Assembly: GCA_016188075.1 (NCBI GenBank)
Contig: JACPIO010000025.1
Span: 3,579-67,578, forward strand
DNA length: 64,000 nt
Source of the DNA: Candidatus Wolfebacteria bacterium
GTDB lineage: Bacteria; Patescibacteriota; Minisyncoccia; UBA6257; UBA9933
Direction of reading: 5' to 3'
Shown: piece by piece, positions 3,201 through 56,429 of the stretch
How the letters are laid out: each line of letters starts with the position of its first letter
Numbering within the stretch: the first letter of the stretch is position 1
Translations under genes and position numbers: made by a program
Notes under the pieces: generated by a model
Databases searched by the model: none
Told to the model about the DNA's origin: nothing
The model's input: the letters and a program-made list of their open reading frames with translations, nothing else

Positions 3201-6200
3201 TCGGCGGCAGTTGGACAGCTGTTTCCCCGACCAATTTAGCCGCAGGCGATACAAACAATAAAACCGTAAGTCCAGACACCTATACTCAATATACCGCCAC
3301 TTGGGACGCTAAAACCCAAATTCCCAATACCTATTATGCTACAGCTCAAGTAAGACAAACCGTGAATGACCACGAAGCTGCTAATAATACCGCGATTGCC
3401 ACGAGTTCCGCTTTTATCCTGGACACTAAAAATCCCTCCTCCACAATGACTCTAAACGGCGCCTCTTCCACTTTTACTTATACTCTAACAGATGATTCGA
3501 ATATCAGCTTTACGCTCTCGAACAACAGCAACCTGTCAGCTGACGGGTTGAACGCTTCGTCGGGAATTTTGCAAACTCTTTCTGTCACCTCAACTTCAGC
3601 CACTGTAAACTGGACTCTGGCCACTTCAAGCTATCCCACGGTTTATTTGAATGTGCGAGATATCTATGGCAACAATGTAACTGGCACCGCAGTGGCTCCC
3701 ACTCTTCCTTCTTCAATGGACATCAAAGACGTTTCCAATGTTACGACTAATTCATATTCCAACTTTATCTCCTGGGGAGTCTACAGCTCTGGAGCCAACG
3801 CCACTTTTTCCAATTATCGGGTGTTTCGGTCAACAAATGGCGGAAGCACTTATTCTCTTTTGACCACGATCACTGACGTGAACACCAATTATTACAGGGA
3901 CGCCTCTTTATCCTCTTCCACCACTTATTACTACAAAACCACGATTACGGATACGGACAACGACGTCTCCAGTTTTTCCTCGTCGGTCAATCACCAGCCC
4001 GTTGGTTCTGGCGGCACTGACCTTACTCCTCCAGCCATCACCAATGTTACGGTAACCTCAACTCAAGCCACCTGGGCCAGAATCACCTGGACCACGGATG
4101 AGTTGGCCACTCCGGAAATCAATTATTCGGCTTCTTCCACTGCTTACAATTTGACCGCGTCTACCACATCTTATTTAACTTCTCACGATATTACTCTTTC
4201 GGGTTTAACTCCCAATACGGTTTATTATTTCCGAGTGAGATCAACGGATATTGAAGGAAACCGAGGCACGAATGACAATGGGGGCTCCGGCTTTACCTTT
4301 ACCACCACAGGCGGCCCCATTATCTCGGATGTGACCACGGAATCTGTGACTGACAATTCCGCCACCATTATCTGGAATACCAATGTGGCGGCAAACTCCG
4401 CAGTTGTTTACGCTCAAAACATAACTGCTCTAAGAACCGGCGCTGGCATCTCGGAAGTTTCAAGCTCCAGCCCTGTGACCGGACCTCCGTATCAGCACCG
4501 AATCACGATTACTGGTTTAACTTCCAGAACCACCTATTACTACTATCCCAAAGTAACCGCTTCTTCGGATACCACGACCGACTCCAATTCCGGCAACTAT
4601 TATTCTTTCCGCACGGCTTACGACACCAAACCACCGGTGATCACCAATGTCACAACCACTGTTGTTACCAAAAACTCGGCTGTGATTACCTGGGTAACTG
4701 ACGAGTTATCTTCGAGTCAAGCTGACTATGGTTTAGCTGCCGGCTCCTATACCAATGCCACGACCATTGATTCCTTATTATCCATTACCCATTCCGCAAC
4801 TATTATTGGTCTTGCCCGAACCACCACTTATTATTTCCGAGTGAGATCAATTGACGCGGCTAACAATGAAGCCATCTCTCCGGAAGCTAATTTCCGCACC
4901 ACTGAAGCTGACACCATTATTATCTCAACAGGAGGCGCTGGCGGCGCTCCGCCTCCACCGCCCAGAGACACCACCCCGCCCAAGATCTCGGATATTCAAG
5001 CCGTAGATATTTCGGCTTTCGGAGCCACGGTGAAATTCGAAACAAACGAGTCGGCTCTCGCCATTATGGATTACGGCGAAACCAATATCTACGGCTTCGC
5101 GGCCGCGAGTCGCGACTTTCTGACCGGTCACGCCATTAAGCTCTCCGGCTTAAAACTCGGCACCGATTATCACTTTAAGATAAAGGCGATTGACAAAGAT
5201 AATAATTCGGCGACATCAGAAGATAATACTTTTCGGACGAAATTTTTCGCTGAATCCGTGGCCGAATTAAAAACAGTGGAGAACGCGTATCAGTTTCAGC
5301 AGGAAGTCGAAGAATCAATTGAATCAATCTTGCCGAGCATCATCCCGCCCTTTATCGAGAAGCCGAGAGTGGTTGACATTGCCGAAAATTCGGCGACCGT
5401 GCTTTGGAAAACTAATGTAAAAGCTTTCTCGGTCGTTGCTTACGCGCCGGAAGATGAATACGAAAAAGATCCGGTGAAACCCTACACCGCCGAGGCGGCT
5501 AATATCGAACGCAAAGTTCAAGAACATGAAGTGAAGCTCGCTGGTCTCAAGTCCAACACCCTTTATCACTATCAGGCTAAAGCTTTTAGTCTGCCTCAAG
5601 CTCTAAGCAAAACACCGGATTCGACTTTCCTTACGAAAACAGCCAAGACCCAGCCGCGAGTAGCTGATGTTGATAAAGACGCGATTCGAATCGTCTGGCG
5701 AACAGACGAGACGGCCAGTTCCATTGTGGAATACAAAAATTTGCGGACCGGGGAAATTAATCGGAAGATTAACGAAGAGAAAGTGAGCGATCACGACGCG
5801 CGGATTGAAAATTTATCTCCGGATACCACGTATCAAATCAGCGTTTCCGGCTATAATGTTAAAGATAATTTAATTGAAGGCGGCGAGCCCATTACTGTTA
5901 AAACCTCGAAGGACGTAACGCCGCCGGTGATCTCCTCGATTAAAATTGACAACGCCTTAGTGCCGGGCCGCACCGATCGCGTGCAAACCGTGGTCGGTTG
6001 GAAGACCAACGAGCCGGCGACATCCGTTGTTTTCTACGAAGAAGGAACCTCCGGGAAAAAGGGAACTGCCTTGGCGAATAAAATTGAAATTCCCAATCAG
6101 TTAGTGACGGACCACAATGTTATTTTAACCGAACTCCGGCCCGGAATACTTTACCGCGTTCAGTTGACATCCGTGGACGAAGCCGGCAATAAAATAACCT

Positions 6201-8005: not shown

Positions 8006-8371
8006 ATGATGGTCCATTCATACAAAGATTTAATAGTTTGGCAGAGGTCAGTTGAGCTAGTGGTCGCTGTTTATGAACTAACAGAAAAATTTCCAAAAGA
8101 AGAGATTTATGGATTGGTTTCACAAATGAGGAGAGCGGCGGTTTCAATTCCGTCGAACATCGCGGAAGGAAGATTAAGAGGAACAAGAAAAGATTTCTCG
8201 CAGTATTTAAGAATCGCGTACAGTTCGGGGGCTGAGTTGGAAACGCAAGTAGTAATAGCCAAAGCGCTTCCCAAGATGAAAAATCTCAATTATTTAAAAG
8301 TTGATTCATTATTGGAAGAAACAATGAAAATGCTGAACGTAATGATAAGGGGGTTAAATCCTAAAAGCTAA
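8006..8371 (+). CDS. four-helix-bundle protein, 23S rRNA intervening-sequence protein family
   Basis: 121 aa; motif FPKEE...QMRRAAVSIPSNIAEG...FLRIAYSSGAELETQ; inserted between mraZ and rsmH; flanked by 12-bp inverted repeats. Confidence 0.8.
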   Translation: MMVHSYKDLIVWQRSVELVVAVYELTEKFPKEEIYGLVSQMRRAAVSIPSNIAEGRLRGTRKDFSQYLRIAYSSGAELETQVVIAKALPKMKNLNYLKVDSLLEETMKMLNVMIRGLNPKS

Positions 8372-22691: not shown

Positions 22692-22762
22692 GCGGGCGTA
22701 GTATAGTGGCAATACGCGACCTTCCCAAGGTTGAAGCGGGAGTTCGATTCTCCTCGCCCGCT
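22692..22762 (+). tRNA. tRNA-Gly (anticodon CCC)
   Basis: acceptor gcgggcg/cgcccgc, anticodon loop ttCCCaa, T-arm gggag-ttcgatt-ctcct. Confidence 0.8.
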
Positions 22763-22771
22763 CAAATTATC

Positions 22772-23965
22772 ATGAAATTTTTAAATTCGTTGGAGAAAAA
22801 AAGTCTTGCTGGCGAGATTTGTCTTTTGCGGATGGATTTGGATATTGAAAACACGGACTTACGCGGACTTAACGCTGACTCACACAGACAATTGCCATTC
22901 AGATTAGAAGCGGCTTTGCCGACAATTAAATTTTTGCTCGAAAGAAAAACCAAGGTGGTAATCTTGTCTCATCGCGGTAGGCCGCGGTCTGGGATATACG
23001 CGGATAGACGCAGAAAAGAATTCTCCCTGAAGCCGTTTGTGAAGATTTTAGCGTCCTTATTGAAACGCCCCATCTATTTTATCGATTTTAAAAATCTTAC
23101 GAGGCTTAGCCTCGTAAGATTGAAAAATGTTGTTAGAGACTCCGCCCCGGGCGCTATTTTTCTTTTGGAAAATTTAAGATTTTTGAAGGGTGAAATGGAA
23201 AACGACAAAAAATTCGCGAAACAATTGGCGTCGCTGGGAAGTTTTTACGTAAACGATGCTTTCGGCGTCAGTCATCGGGCGAACGCTTCAGTCGAAGCCA
23301 TTACTCATTTTTTGCCTTCATACGCCGGTTTGCACATGGAAAAAGAATTAGAAAAACTGAATGGGTTGACGAAAAAAGCGAAACGGCCATTCGTGATTAT
23401 TCTCGGCGGTTCGAAAACTCACGATAAACTGCCGCTTATAAAAAATTTATGGAATAAAGCGGATTATTTTCTTTTGGGCGGCGGGGTTGCCAATACTTTT
23501 TTCGCGGCTCAAGGATTGCTGATCGGAGATTCCTTGCGTGGAGACAGCGCGGAACTGCGCGGAATACTGCGCGGAATTACGCGGAAAGAATTATCACGAA
23601 AAGTTATCTTGCCAGTTGATGTTGCGATTAAGGATAGAAAAATTTTGGATATCGGACCGAAAACAGTTAAAAGATTCGGCGAAATTATAAAGAAAGCGAA
23701 AACGATTATTTGGAACGGGCCAATGGGATTGATTGAGGATCCGCGATTTGCCAAGGGTTCGGCGGAGGTGGCACGATTTATTTCTCAAAGCCGCGCTTTC
23801 TCTGTTGTTGGTGGAGGAGAAACTACCTCTCTAATTACCAATTACCAATTACCAATTACCAAAAGAAATATTTTTCTTTCTACCGGCGGCGGCGCGATGC
23901 TCGAATATCTGGCGGGCAAGAAATTACCGGGCATAGAGGTGTTGAAAAAGTCTACTGTCGACTGA
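22772..23965 (+). CDS. pgk: phosphoglycerate kinase carrying in-frame repeat-derived segments
   Basis: ILSHRGRP, FYVNDAFGVSHRANAS, GGGVANTF and STGGGAMLEY motifs; ATG at 22772 (the track ORF from 22706 overlaps tRNA-Gly); 10-aa insert NLTRLSLVRL from the 29-bp palindrome. Confidence 0.85.
   Translation: MKFLNSLEKKSLAGEICLLRMDLDIENTDLRGLNADSHRQLPFRLEAALPTIKFLLERKTKVVILSHRGRPRSGIYADRRRKEFSLKPFVKILASLLKRPIYFIDFKNLTRLSLVRLKNVVRDSAPGAIFLLENLRFLKGEMENDKKFAKQLASLGSFYVNDAFGVSHRANASVEAITHFLPSYAGLHMEKELEKLNGLTKKAKRPFVIILGGSKTHDKLPLIKNLWNKADYFLLGGGVANTFFAAQGLLIGDSLRGDSAELRGILRGITRKELSRKVILPVDVAIKDRKILDIGPKTVKRFGEIIKKAKTIIWNGPMGLIEDPRFAKGSAEVARFISQSRAFSVVGGGETTSLITNYQLPITKRNIFLSTGGGAMLEYLAGKKLPGIEVLKKSTVD
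22851..22885. repeat. ACGCGGA-type array inside pgk (encodes TDLRGLNADSH)
   Basis: units acacggactt, acgcggactta, acgctgactc. Confidence 0.5.
23093..23121. repeat. palindromic element copy 3 (aatcttacgaggc-tta-gcctcgtaagatt) in-frame inside pgk
   Basis: 13-bp arms; about 10 extra residues relative to E. coli Pgk at this position. Confidence 0.75.
23545..23590. repeat. ACGCGGA-type array inside pgk (encodes SAELRGILRGITRKE)
   Basis: gcgcggaact, gcgcggaatact, gcgcggaattac, gcggaaag. Confidence 0.6.
23831..23855. repeat. ccaattac x3 tandem repeat inside pgk (encodes ITNYQLPIT)
   Basis: reverse complement of the taattggtaatt family at 12631-12660. Confidence 0.5.
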
Positions 23966-24036: not shown

Positions 24037-24921
24037 ATGAAATCCATCGTCGTTTTTTATCACAAAAATTGTCTTGATGGTTTTACCGCTGCGTGGGCGG
24101 CTTGGAGAAAATTTGGCAAGAACGCCGTTTATATCGGCATCGAAGCCAAAAGCGAGCCGGTAAAAAATCTTCGAAATAAAGAGATTTACTTTTTGGATGC
24201 TTGTTTTGAAGAAAAGCCGCTTCGCCGGATGGTGAAAAATAATAAAAAGGTTGTGGTTATTGATCATCATTTAAGCCGAAAAGATTTTGTCCATATCGCA
24301 ACCGAAGCAGTGTTTGATCTTAAGCGTTCTGGTTCGGCTTTGGCCTGGAATTATTTTCATTCCGAGAGGCTAATGCCGAAACTGGTTTCTTACGTGGAAG
24401 ATAACGATCTTTGGCGGTTTAGGTTGCCTTACGCAAGAGAGTTAAATAATTCTTTAGAAACCTATCCAATGACTTTTGAGGGATGGAGCAAGCTAGCCGC
24501 CGACTTTCAGTTTTCTGGCAAAAGAAAAAAATATATTGAGGAAGGGAGGGCGATTATCAAATATAAAAAGAAAATAGCCCAGGAGCTGGCGAAAGCAGGA
24601 GATGAAGTTTTTTTCGAGAATCATCGTGCTATCGCCGTTAACTCGTCGATTTTGAAGTCGGAGATCGGAGAATTTGTTTTACAAAATAAGATGGCGCCAC
24701 TTTTCATCCTTTGGCATTACGAGGCGAAACCAAAACCAAAAATTTATTTTAGTTTGCGCTCAAACGGAAAAATTAACGTTGCGGAGTTGGCTAAAAAATT
24801 CGGCGGCGGCGGGCACAGGGCTGCCGGCGGTTTTAACTTTGAACTTAAAAAAAATTTTCCCGGAATTTGTTTCGGGGAAAAATTGCCGTGGCAAAGAAAG
24901 AGTGGTAGAACGGAAAAATGA
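24037..24921 (+). CDS. DHH/DHHA1 phosphoesterase (NrnA-like oligoribonuclease/pAp phosphatase)
   Basis: DHH motif VIDHH; DHHA1 GGGGH. Confidence 0.75.
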   Translation: MKSIVVFYHKNCLDGFTAAWAAWRKFGKNAVYIGIEAKSEPVKNLRNKEIYFLDACFEEKPLRRMVKNNKKVVVIDHHLSRKDFVHIATEAVFDLKRSGSALAWNYFHSERLMPKLVSYVEDNDLWRFRLPYARELNNSLETYPMTFEGWSKLAADFQFSGKRKKYIEEGRAIIKYKKKIAQELAKAGDEVFFENHRAIAVNSSILKSEIGEFVLQNKMAPLFILWHYEAKPKPKIYFSLRSNGKINVAELAKKFGGGGHRAAGGFNFELKKNFPGICFGEKLPWQRKSGRTEK

Positions 24922-43622: not shown

Positions 43623-43729
43623 TGCAGTTTTAATTAAAAAATTCGAACCTTTAAGCGATGCTATCAAAAACAAAGAGCAAAGCGTTGTCAAACTGCTAAA
43701 GGTAATTATATATTGGAAATAAATTTAAC

Positions 43730-43769
43730 GCAAGCCCCGTCACTCAATTAATTGAGTGACGGGGCTTGC
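43730..43769. repeat. perfect 18-bp-stem palindrome gcaagccccgtcactcaa-ttaa-ttgagtgacggggcttgc (likely terminator)
   Basis: exact inverted repeat; followed at 43817-43834 by the ggtagctttaaagctacc palindrome also seen at 19533. Confidence 0.6.
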
Positions 43770-43912
43770 GAAGCAATCTGCCTCGCGGTTTGCTGCGGGG
43801 CAGTTAATTTTGACATGGTAGCTTTAAAGCTACCGCTGGTCAGGGCGGGGAGGCAGGTGAAGCAGCTGATTTGGGACGAGGCGGTTGGTTTGAACCAACC
43901 GCTAATCGGAAA

Positions 43913-44566: not shown

Positions 44567-44664
44567 GTATTTTTACTAAAGTCATTCTCACGGCCGTGAG
44601 TATTACTTTAGTGTTGCTGGTGCAGTTAACTGCACCGCTTCGGATTTAAGATTGACCGGAGACC

Positions 44665-54118: not shown

Positions 54119-54295
54119 TGAAGAAGCGGCTTTTTGTCGCGATCAATCTGCCTCAAGATACGAAAGAAGAAATTGAAAAGATTCTTCCAATATATCGAGG
54201 TTCAACCTCGATAGGTTCAACCTCGATATATTGCAACCTCGATATATTGCAGTATCAAGTCATCGCAAGCTCGACATTTGGCAATAAATAAAATA
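54119..54295 (+). pseudogene. possible 5' remnant of a 2'-5' RNA ligase (ThpR/LigT-like) gene, disrupted by tandem repeats
   Basis: MKKRLFVAINLPQDTKEEIEKILP then three tandem caacctcgatat-type units (54192-54252) and a stop. Confidence 0.3.
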
Positions 54296-54323: not shown

Positions 54324-55559
54324 ATGGAAAAATTTACCAAGAAAAAAATTATCCTGATTGGATTTTCGATCGTCTTAGTTGTCGGGTTCGTCGTCGGTTC
54401 TTTTTATTTCGGCTACGAAACCGGCAGAAAAAAACCTTATCGGATTGAGGTTCAGGGAGTGTCTAATTTGGAAAAAGGAAAAGCCCAGGATGTGGATTTC
54501 GGACTTTTTTGGGAAGTCTGGAAAAGATTGAAAGAAAAATACGTTGACCCTGCGAAGACCGGCAGTAATCAGGATTTGGTTTATGGCGCCATCTCCGGGC
54601 TTTTGGGATCGCTTAAGGATCCCAATACGGTTTTTTTCCCGCCGTCGGACGCGAAAAAATTCGGCGAAGATATCAGCGGCCAGTTTTCCGGTATTGGCGC
54701 CGAGATAGGAATGCGGAACGACCAGCTGGTTATTATCGCGCCCCTTAAAGACACGCCAGCCGAACGGGCCGGCCTGCGCTCCGGCGACAAAATTTTGAAA
54801 ATCGACGAAACTCAGACCGGGGGCATAACCGTTGACGAAGCGGTAAAATTGATAAGAGGCAAGGAAAGCACGGTTGTCGCTTTGACGATTTTGCGCAACG
54901 GCTGGGATAAGTCCAAAGAAATAAAAATAACCAGAGGAGTGATTCAGGTGCCGACTCTGGATTTTGAAATGAAAACCGACGGCATTGCCTATATCCATTT
55001 ATATAATTTCTACGAAAAATCCGTTCCGCTTTTTTACGAGGCTGTTTTTAAGATGGCCAAAGAGAATCCGCGGGGCTTGATTCTTGATTTGCGCGATAAT
55101 CCCGGCGGCTATCTTCAGGCGGCGGTTGATTTGGCCGGCTGGTTTTTGGAATCCGGAGAGGTGGTCGTGAAAGAAGAATTCCGTTCTGATCCGGAACAAG
55201 TTTTTAAGGCCCAACGTTCCGGAATTTTCAAAAATCTGCCGATGGTTATTTTGGTCAATCAAGGGTCGGCTTCGGCTTCGGAAATTTTAGCCGGCGCCCT
55301 TCACGACAATCGCGCCATAAAACTTATCGGTAAAAAAACTTTCGGCAAAGGGACGGTGCAGGAACTCGAAGAGCTGCCGGATAATTCTTTGCTTAAAATA
55401 ACCATTGCTCACTGGCGGCTTCCCGGCGGCCAGCTTATCGAAAAAAATGGCATTGCGCCGGATTATGAAGTTGATTTGAGTGACGAAGATGTAAAGAATA
55501 AAAAGGATCCGCAATTGGAGAAAGCGATGGAAATTTTGAAATCAGAGATTTCAAAATAA
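54324..55559 (+). CDS. ctpA: C-terminal processing (S41) peptidase with PDZ domain
   Basis: PDZ GLRSGDKILKID; S41 motifs LILDLRDNPGG and GSASASEILAGAL. Confidence 0.85.
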   Translation: MEKFTKKKIILIGFSIVLVVGFVVGSFYFGYETGRKKPYRIEVQGVSNLEKGKAQDVDFGLFWEVWKRLKEKYVDPAKTGSNQDLVYGAISGLLGSLKDPNTVFFPPSDAKKFGEDISGQFSGIGAEIGMRNDQLVIIAPLKDTPAERAGLRSGDKILKIDETQTGGITVDEAVKLIRGKESTVVALTILRNGWDKSKEIKITRGVIQVPTLDFEMKTDGIAYIHLYNFYEKSVPLFYEAVFKMAKENPRGLILDLRDNPGGYLQAAVDLAGWFLESGEVVVKEEFRSDPEQVFKAQRSGIFKNLPMVILVNQGSASASEILAGALHDNRAIKLIGKKTFGKGTVQELEELPDNSLLKITIAHWRLPGGQLIEKNGIAPDYEVDLSDEDVKNKKDPQLEKAMEILKSEISK

Positions 55560-56291: not shown

Positions 56292-56352
56292 GCCAATTAT
56301 ATCTAAATTTTCGAGCCATCGGGCGAAGAAAATTTAGTATTAGAATTGAGCA

Positions 56353-56380
56353 CCGAGCACATAATGCGTTATGTGCTCGG
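56353..56380. repeat. palindrome ccgagcacataatgc-gttatgtgctcgg (copy of the element inside rnpB)
   Basis: near-identical to 26817-26844; followed by a T-run. Confidence 0.6.
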
Positions 56381-56429
56381 TAGTTTTTCGCTATTTATTT
56401 TATTACTATATTAATGTAAGCTTAAAACT

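Follow-up and report, generated by a model that had tools for sequence, protein, structure and literature searches.

The 64,000-nucleotide stretch analysed here (hereafter the window; assembly GCA_016188075.1, contig JACPIO010000025.1, positions 3,579 to 67,578) comes from a Candidatus Wolfebacteria bacterium and contains three copies of a 29-bp palindrome, one of which lies in frame within pgk, the phosphoglycerate kinase gene. The pgk gene (22772-23965, plus strand) encodes a 397-amino acid protein that matches PF00162 and the Pgk structures of the PDB (to E 2.6e-72). It is 100% identical to a database protein of 397 residues from Candidatus Wolfebacteria (P0001), while the next-closest relatives share only 58-60% identity with it. 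A tRNA gene (22692-22762) ends 9 nt ahead of the ATG at 22772, and the mechanically predicted open reading frame (ORF) starting at GTG 22706 overlaps this tRNA gene. The tRNA gene and the length of P0001 therefore identify ATG 22772, instead of GTG 22706, as the start of pgk, and with this start the peptide encoded by the palindrome, NLTRLSLVRL, corresponds to residues 108-117 of Pgk.

The three copies share a 13+3+13 build. The copy in pgk (copy 3, 23093-23121) is the perfect 29-mer AATCTTACGAGGCTTAGCCTCGTAAGATT, whose arms and loop read AATCTTACGAGGC-TTA-GCCTCGTAAGATT; copy 2 (207-235, AATCTTACGAGGCTTAGCCTCGTAAAGTT) carries two mismatches, and copy 1 (71-99, TATCTTACGAGGCTTAACCTCGTAAAATC) differs from the perfect form by four. 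A preliminary description of this DNA had already recognised the three copies and had correctly reported the perfect one in frame in pgk together with its ten-residue peptide, but the limits that it gave for copies 1 and 2 (74-96 and 207-233) have to be corrected to those above. In dinucleotide-preserving shuffles of the window, no match to the palindrome is expected. A covariance model was built from the copies of other genomes only and then run on the window; it recovered exactly copies 1, 2 and 3 at E<=1e-7 (about 1e-7 for copy 1, with a match at 69-101, 1.6e-8 for copy 2 and about 6e-10 for copy 3). The RNA folding energies of copies 3, 2 and 1 are -20.2, -13.3 and -11.0 kcal/mol, with z-scores against shuffled sequence of -7.1, -5.1 and -3.8.

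Copies 1 and 2 had been described as lying upstream of a giant gene, and both do: its ATG, at 245, stands 9 nt beyond the end of copy 2, and it encodes a 2019-amino acid surface-type protein with Pfam matches to Laminin_G and fn3. On the other side, a Y1/HUH transposase gene of the type associated with repetitive extragenic palindromic (REP) sequences begins on the minus strand; its first 21 codons (MRNIQFTEGEIYHVYNRGIDK) lie at 2-64, where the window edge cuts it. The two copies are therefore located in the 180-bp spacer that separates the divergently oriented transposase and giant genes, and copy 1 is the transposase gene's own upstream copy. The distance from the ATG (64-62) back to the beginning of its 21-nt core is 31 nt, which fits the range of -30 to -53 occupied by the upstream copy at other transposase loci. 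The transposase start bears the residues Y12, H13, R17, G18 and K21, which are invariant in the family (alignments A2/A3), and a protein from locus L070 has a comparable N-terminus (MENPQFTTDGFYHIYNRGVEKR). An exact 50-mer from positions 15-64 had no match in JGI metagenomes. No database entry corresponds to the giant protein, and searches with two neighbouring proteins returned only short Logan contigs; the population is present in the sequencing runs SRR12113430, SRR12113422, SRR12113384 and SRR12113420. Neither a sigma-70-like promoter nor a terminator was predicted in the spacer (65-244) by a scan of positions 1-400, and an Rfam scan of the window returned four tRNAs only, the palindrome matching no family.

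The covariance model also returned a weak relative at 54189-54219, which can be considered only a weak family member because of its E-value of 0.08. It belongs to an intergenic cluster (54189-54250) in which two additional half copies of the right arm, caacctcgatatatt, come after ATATATCGAGGTTCAACCTCGATA; the apical CGAGGTTCAACCTCG is common to this palindrome and the main one, and the lower stem is different. Ragged half-site duplications of this kind flank the main palindrome at many loci, for example L005, L009, L014, L031, L059 and L079. An identity of the half sites as DNA uptake sequences was rejected, as they are barely enriched over the whole window (two outside the palindromes against 0.33 nine-mers expected) and their density is far below 1 per kb.

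The dispersed family and its transposase

Public genomes, one per species, were scanned with the pattern TCTTACGAGGNNNNNCCTCGTAA. The scan returned 109 loci, nearly all from Patescibacteria of many candidate phyla; the hosts are labelled, on the deposited metagenome-assembled genomes (MAGs), as Wolfe-, Niyogi-, Sungii-, Kuenen-, Azam-, Nealson-, Jorgensen-, Yonath-, Portnoy- and Yanofskybacteria, together with MAGs labelled Saccharibacteria. A few one-armed matches in unrelated bacteria look like chance, about ten being expected by a rough estimate for 18 specified bases in 596 Gb. Several copies can occur in one genome, with at least 14 in JAZDGD01 and at least 6 in JACOVJ01 among the 80 loci listed, and the viral contigs scanned contained no copy.

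The alignment of 131 copies (128 in these loci and the three of the window) shows that the conserved unit is exactly 29 bp long, AATC-TTACGAGG-Y-NNN-R-CCTCGTAA-GATT, without any conserved base beyond it. A general extension of the stem past these limits was rejected since the complementarity of the flanks drops to 30-40% right outside, although some copies are found within longer palindromes. The pair adjacent to the loop covaries, being U-A in 57 sequences and C-G in 36, and both the covariation score and the percentage of paired positions exceed those of all 500 shuffles and of all slid controls. The eight core pairs are uninformative in this respect because the search pattern fixed them.

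Where two or three copies lie about 530 nt apart, an ORF of about 235 codons is found between them. The encoded transposase is present in about 19 of the 109 loci according to tblastn, the loci having been picked by the palindrome alone. Most complete loci display the same layout, with a hairpin 30-53 nt before the ATG, an in-frame copy at nt +176 to +209 (read as SYEVxPRKI) and a further copy 5-23 nt past the stop codon. Of the 8000 candidates scored, 7978 reached E<=0.001, which makes this a very large family; its mean identity is about 60%. The transposase encoded at these loci passes the cut-off of the Pfam family Y1_Tnp ("Transposase IS200 like") with 23.2-36.5 bits for a threshold of 23. 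The residues invariant in alignments A2/A3 are YH..RG, N84, H85 and H87, which make up the NHxH form of the HUH motif, and Y145, I146, H147 and N149 (YIHxNP). The segment encoded by the internal palindrome lies in the most variable loop of the family; it is present in most members, with variants such as SYEVEPHK and SYEVQLRK, and absent from a few.

The AlphaFold model of one member (P0121) is of moderate confidence (mean predicted local distance difference test score, pLDDT, 75.9), and the REP-coded residues 47-67 form a disordered loop in it. Compared with the PDB using Foldseek, this model has as its top match chain A of 4ER8, the E. coli REP-associated tyrosine transposase (RAYT) in complex with a REP hairpin (E 3.4e-5, TM 0.68 on the target), followed by the TnpA proteins of IS608, ISDra2 and IS200. 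The transposase carries a C-terminal extension of about 80 residues, which the TnpA chains of 125-150 amino acids among the fold matches lack.

A variant hairpin with GGAAG arms (TCTTAGGAAGNNNNNCTTCCTAAGA) was found at six loci in a metagenome scan. At three of the six, a related transposase gene is accompanied by hairpin copies in the same three positions, and the internal copy there has TCTAAGG in place of TCTTAGG, a single mismatch by which an in-frame TAG stop is avoided. The GGAAG type has its own related transposases, and therefore the hairpin type co-varies with the transposase lineage, as in the described REP/RAYT pairs. In another lineage, this type is also found at those codons of pgk where the window has copy 3.

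In-frame copies in pgk and other protein genes

On either strand, the palindrome can be read through in two of the three frames, giving SYE-x-x-PRK-I and NLTR-x-x-LVR, while the third always ends in TAA; copies at tolerant protein sites can therefore persist in frame. We counted 54 combinations of match and frame, representing about 48 of the 131 matches, that lie well within ORFs of at least 120 amino acids. Long open frames are nevertheless depleted of copies, with 46% compared to 76% for random positions. Pfam domains were detected in 18 of the 20 long copy-bearing ORFs tested. These hosts are Mfd, MiaB-MiaA, a PMT glycosyltransferase, UvrC, a class I tRNA synthetase, ComEC, PolI, a glycerate-kinase-like protein, the CCA enzyme, DnaG, an EamA/Glyco_hydro_42-domain protein, UvrA, DinB, enolase, TsaD, MiaA, GtrA and KsgA, and the hairpin is mostly located at a domain boundary. 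Solitary left arms (TTACGAGGC) are also present in the window, at 24713-24745 in a DHHA1-domain gene and at 55026-55054 in an S41 peptidase gene; they are read in frame as HYEAKPKPK and FFTRLFLR, which resemble the two peptides encoded by the full palindrome, and may be decayed in-frame copies or chance matches.

In Pgk, the preliminary description had counted about ten added residues relative to E. coli. This number holds against E. coli Pgk only, by our own count; the net gain is 5 residues compared with Bacillus Pgk (1PHP) and 1-2 compared with the closest Patescibacteria Pgk. Residues 108-117 align at the GDEVKAAVDRL segment of the Bacillus sequence. The preliminary description had also raised the question of whether the added residues map to a surface loop. 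In the AlphaFold model of the window Pgk (mean pLDDT 84.6, about 80 around the site), strand 101-104 is followed by a loop at residues 108-110 and by helix 111-122, whose first half consists of residues 111-117, and the palindrome is thus predicted to encode a surface loop and half a helix in the N-domain. The pgk copy overwrites a variable loop and the start of a helix and is not a clean insertion of ten residues. Such near-replacement is also seen in enolase, KsgA and TsaD, where the net gains compared with solved homologues are 2, 4 and 9 residues.

The orthologues of pgk, whose alignment had been proposed in the preliminary description, carry palindromes at the site in several lineages. 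In locus L114 (Pgk P0003), the same codons are occupied, in the same phase, by a perfect 13+3+13 palindrome, AATCTTAGGAAGT-TTG-ACTTCCTAAGATT, which differs from that of the window by three changes per arm, all compensated in the opposite arm. The site contains a GGAAG-type unit in duplicate in L116, two inverted GGGACATCCGATGTCCC units in L115, a perfect 26-bp palindrome of another sequence in L118 and decayed palindromes in L117 and L119. Not all orthologues conform: there is no palindrome at the site in L120, and the whole segment is absent from the Pgk protein P0007. Since the palindromes differ among the orthologues, either the site is a hot spot for insertions or an old insertion there has repeatedly been converted to the local type.

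Other repeat-like segments were noticed in Pgk proteins. Residues ~27-40 of the window Pgk form a repeat-like in-frame segment, DLRGLNADSHRQ; TCAGCGT-type units at ~3199-3291 of L114 (residues 67-97 of P0003) are read in frame as ISADSQRKSALSQRRSA; and a perfect 24-bp palindrome, TCCCTGCCTGCCGGCAGGCAGGGA, at 3036-3059 of L116 is read as PCLPAGRD in the N-terminal extension annotated for Pgk P0047. Another conserved palindrome, ACCGAGCACATAA-N(1-4)-TTATGTGCTCGGT, is intergenic in the window (56352-56381), where it is followed by TTTTT, and recurs in two other Patescibacteria pgk neighbourhoods (4057-4083 and 4343-4370 in L115, 2640-2667 in L117); it may represent a further repeat family or a terminator common to these loci. 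Elsewhere in the window, we observed a perfect 42-bp palindrome at 43729-43770 (CGCAAGCCCCGTCACTCAATTA/TAATTGAGTGACGGGGCTTGCG) and a 38-bp one with 90% complementarity at 44575-44612, both of unrelated sequence, as well as an imperfect palindrome of the ACGCGGAT type at 29207-29242, in frame within the 27827-30196 gene. Several unrelated small repeat families seem to write short peptides into Patescibacteria proteomes. Finally, a 121-amino acid protein of the 23S_rRNA_IVP family (PF05635) is encoded at 8006-8371, between mraZ and rsmH, and this family also adjoins recR in L119.

Interpretation and relation to known systems

We consider it likely that the 29-bp palindrome is the REP of a REP/RAYT system widespread in Patescibacteria. 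That a REP- or RPE-like element colonises coding sequence had been suggested from the window by itself, and the REP part of this suggestion is strongly supported by the dispersed family, its linkage to a Y1/HUH transposase, the RAYT-like fold and the at least 18 housekeeping hosts with in-frame copies. In its single-stranded DNA form, the palindrome would form a hairpin with a stem of 13 bp and a loop of 3 nt. The Y1/HUH transposase of about 235 amino acids is the likely enzyme that would recognise this hairpin and cut and rejoin DNA at its foot, which would spread or replace hairpin copies round the genome. Copies landing in tolerant loops, linkers or helix ends could then persist in frame, and the pgk copy would be such a case. 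Binding and cleavage by the transposase are thus presumed, and its mobilising role is suggested by its family membership and by the occurrence of identical copies in unrelated flanks.

Several observations weigh against a REP/RAYT system. The window shows just the first 21 codons of the transposase gene, and three hairpins in 64 kb. The best NCBIfam match of the transposase, "REP-associated tyrosine transposase" (NF047646), gives 32-39 bits and does not reach the cut-off of 80. By sequence, a single transposase found nothing relevant in the PDB, and a profile gave just E 0.3 to ISDra2 TnpA near the HUH motif. About a third of the copies are in ORFs, far above the share in classical "extragenic" REPs. 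The pgk copy nets only 1-5 extra residues, for which a simple insertion of 29-30 nt would not account. The GTAG/CGTC tag at the foot of described REPs (PMC3733652) is absent, the sole similar motif being GTAA, inside the stem. Neither transposition nor cleavage nor empty-site polymorphism was observed, and no empty site was found.

The points on the transposase bear on another reading, that of an ordinary insertion sequence (IS) of the IS200/IS605 type whose gene and ends move together, the hairpins being its left and right ends and the solitary ones decayed ends or miniatures like palindrome-associated transposable elements (PATEs), instead of REPs of a single-copy RAYT. The score above the Y1_Tnp cut-off, the unmet RAYT cut-off, the rank of the IS608, ISDra2 and IS200 TnpA proteins right after 4ER8, and the presence of two gene copies within 8 kb in L109 and on one contig in L050 and L068 all agree with it. 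Yet the upstream, internal and downstream hairpins are one palindrome and not distinct left and right ends, solitary hairpins far exceed genes (at least 14 against 2 in the JAZDGD01 loci), the C-terminal extension has no counterpart in the short TnpA chains, and a RAYT structure is the best fold match; we therefore hold this reading to be improbable. For pgk alone, the hairpin might be a site-specific structure selected by the host, for instance in the mRNA, as a pause or stability element, or in the DNA, older than the split of the lineages and only secondarily similar to the dispersed repeat. This would explain why palindromes lie on the same codons in several orthologues that are just 55-60% identical (L114, L116, L115 and L118). 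It is a still less probable explanation: the sequences found at the site belong to genome-wide, transposase-linked families, about 18 other gene families have the same hairpin in unrelated positions, L120 and P0007 do without the palindrome or the segment, and different REPs at one gene site are known from Xanthomonas recB (PMC3733652). The proximity of the hairpins to gene ends, with the start codon of the transposase 10 nt downstream of copy 1, that of the giant gene 9 nt downstream of copy 2, and the downstream copies only 5-23 nt past stop codons, could also point to an immobile protein-binding operator, terminator or attenuator. We judge this highly improbable, as no T-run was found in the flanks of the 131 copies and no terminator-like site in positions 1-400, stem covariation is the signature of a folded hairpin, unlike conserved operator half-sites, many copies lie deep within ORFs, and the palindrome matches no Rfam family.

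Within the REP/RAYT reading, the pgk copy and the hairpin next to the transposase gene of the window belong to one sequence type, and how the pgk copy came to match the type of its genome is something we infer. One scenario, to which we give rather little credence, is that of an old and largely vertical system, in which the hairpins in essential genes and in the transposase ORF are kept perfect and are switched, at the same codons, to the current type of the genome by transposase-driven replacement or gene conversion; this would be concerted evolution in coding sequence, possibly with a function for the host. It is based on the comparison of the window pgk (CGAGG arms) with the L114 pgk (GGAAG arms), where three pair changes are compensated and the phase is the same, and on the internal copy of the transposase gene, which tracks the flanking copies likewise.

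REP/RAYT work has been almost confined to Proteobacteria, and how REPs spread and persist is still debated. Here, a hairpin core is common to ultra-small, host-dependent bacteria with tiny genomes from many candidate phyla. With its two natural pairs, of CGAGG and GGAAG arms, it offers a compact system for testing how hairpin and enzyme are matched, and the finding that one protein site hosts different hairpin types according to the lineage bears on the choice between fresh insertion and in-place replacement. Moreover, the palindrome accounts for many strange short "insertions" seen in Patescibacteria proteins, with consequences for annotation, alignment and structure prediction.

The REP/RAYT systems of Proteobacteria ("REPtrons" and REPINs, the latter being inverted pairs) are well described, including the Pseudomonas REPINs (PMC3116915, PMC5581495, PMC3479197). 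The Patescibacteria system resembles them in its short dispersed palindrome, in its Y1/HUH gene flanked by the same repeat, in the tracking of the transposase lineage by the hairpin type and, with regard to the E. coli TnpA-REP (PDB 4ER8), in its best structural match, which is a RAYT-REP complex. It differs from them in that the arms are perfect over 13 bp and the core is common to many candidate phyla and not species-specific, the transposase, of about 235 amino acids with a C-terminal extension, is below the NCBIfam RAYT cut-off and has a conserved in-frame hairpin within its own ORF, and a third or so of the copies are intragenic. Unlike REPINs, the palindromes are single units and not inverted pairs, except for the inverted pair in the L115 pgk.

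Intragenic REPs with GTAG/CGTC tags have also been described; they lie wholly within known genes, in frame, and many are in replication or repair genes such as uvrA, uvrB and recB, with different REPs at about one recB site in two Xanthomonas species (Di Nocera et al. 2013, PMC3733652). The present hairpins are similar in occurring in frame in replication and repair genes, here those of UvrA, UvrC, Mfd, PolI, DnaG and DinB, and in that different ones occupy a single gene site, here in pgk. They differ in host group, in sequence and in tag, a much larger fraction of them is intragenic, and their hosts include the gene of the transposase itself. With REP/RAYT systems and intragenic REPs on record, neither the class nor residence in frame is new. 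No paper tying RAYT or REP to Patescibacteria or the candidate phyla radiation (CPR) was found in the literature searched, in which the following features are not described: the host group, the lack of a GTAG/CGTC tag, one core across many candidate phyla, the conserved in-frame copy in the transposase ORF and the high intragenic share.

Two other kinds of element invite comparison. Rickettsia palindromic elements (RPEs) were reportedly described by Ogata et al. in 2000 in frame in protein genes, where they are said to be tolerated at surface positions, and those of the RPE-1 type measure about 100-150 bp. The present palindrome is like an RPE in being a palindromic repeat in frame in protein genes (pgk and 18 Pfam-confirmed genes elsewhere), but the likeness to RPEs put forward in the preliminary description fails on size and lineage, as RPEs are far longer, are known only from Rickettsia and are not known to have an associated transposase, whereas the unit here is 29 bp, the hosts are Patescibacteria and a transposase is linked. 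RPEs are cited in PMC3733652, where they are placed in the CGTC-tagged class of REPs, which apparently has no dedicated transposase. With IS200/IS605 elements and PATEs, the system shares the transposase superfamily, in which hairpins are recognised in single strands (PMC6006769). IS200/IS605 elements have two different imperfect end hairpins and are repeated as whole elements, while in the Patescibacteria system one palindrome stands at every position and solitary copies dominate.

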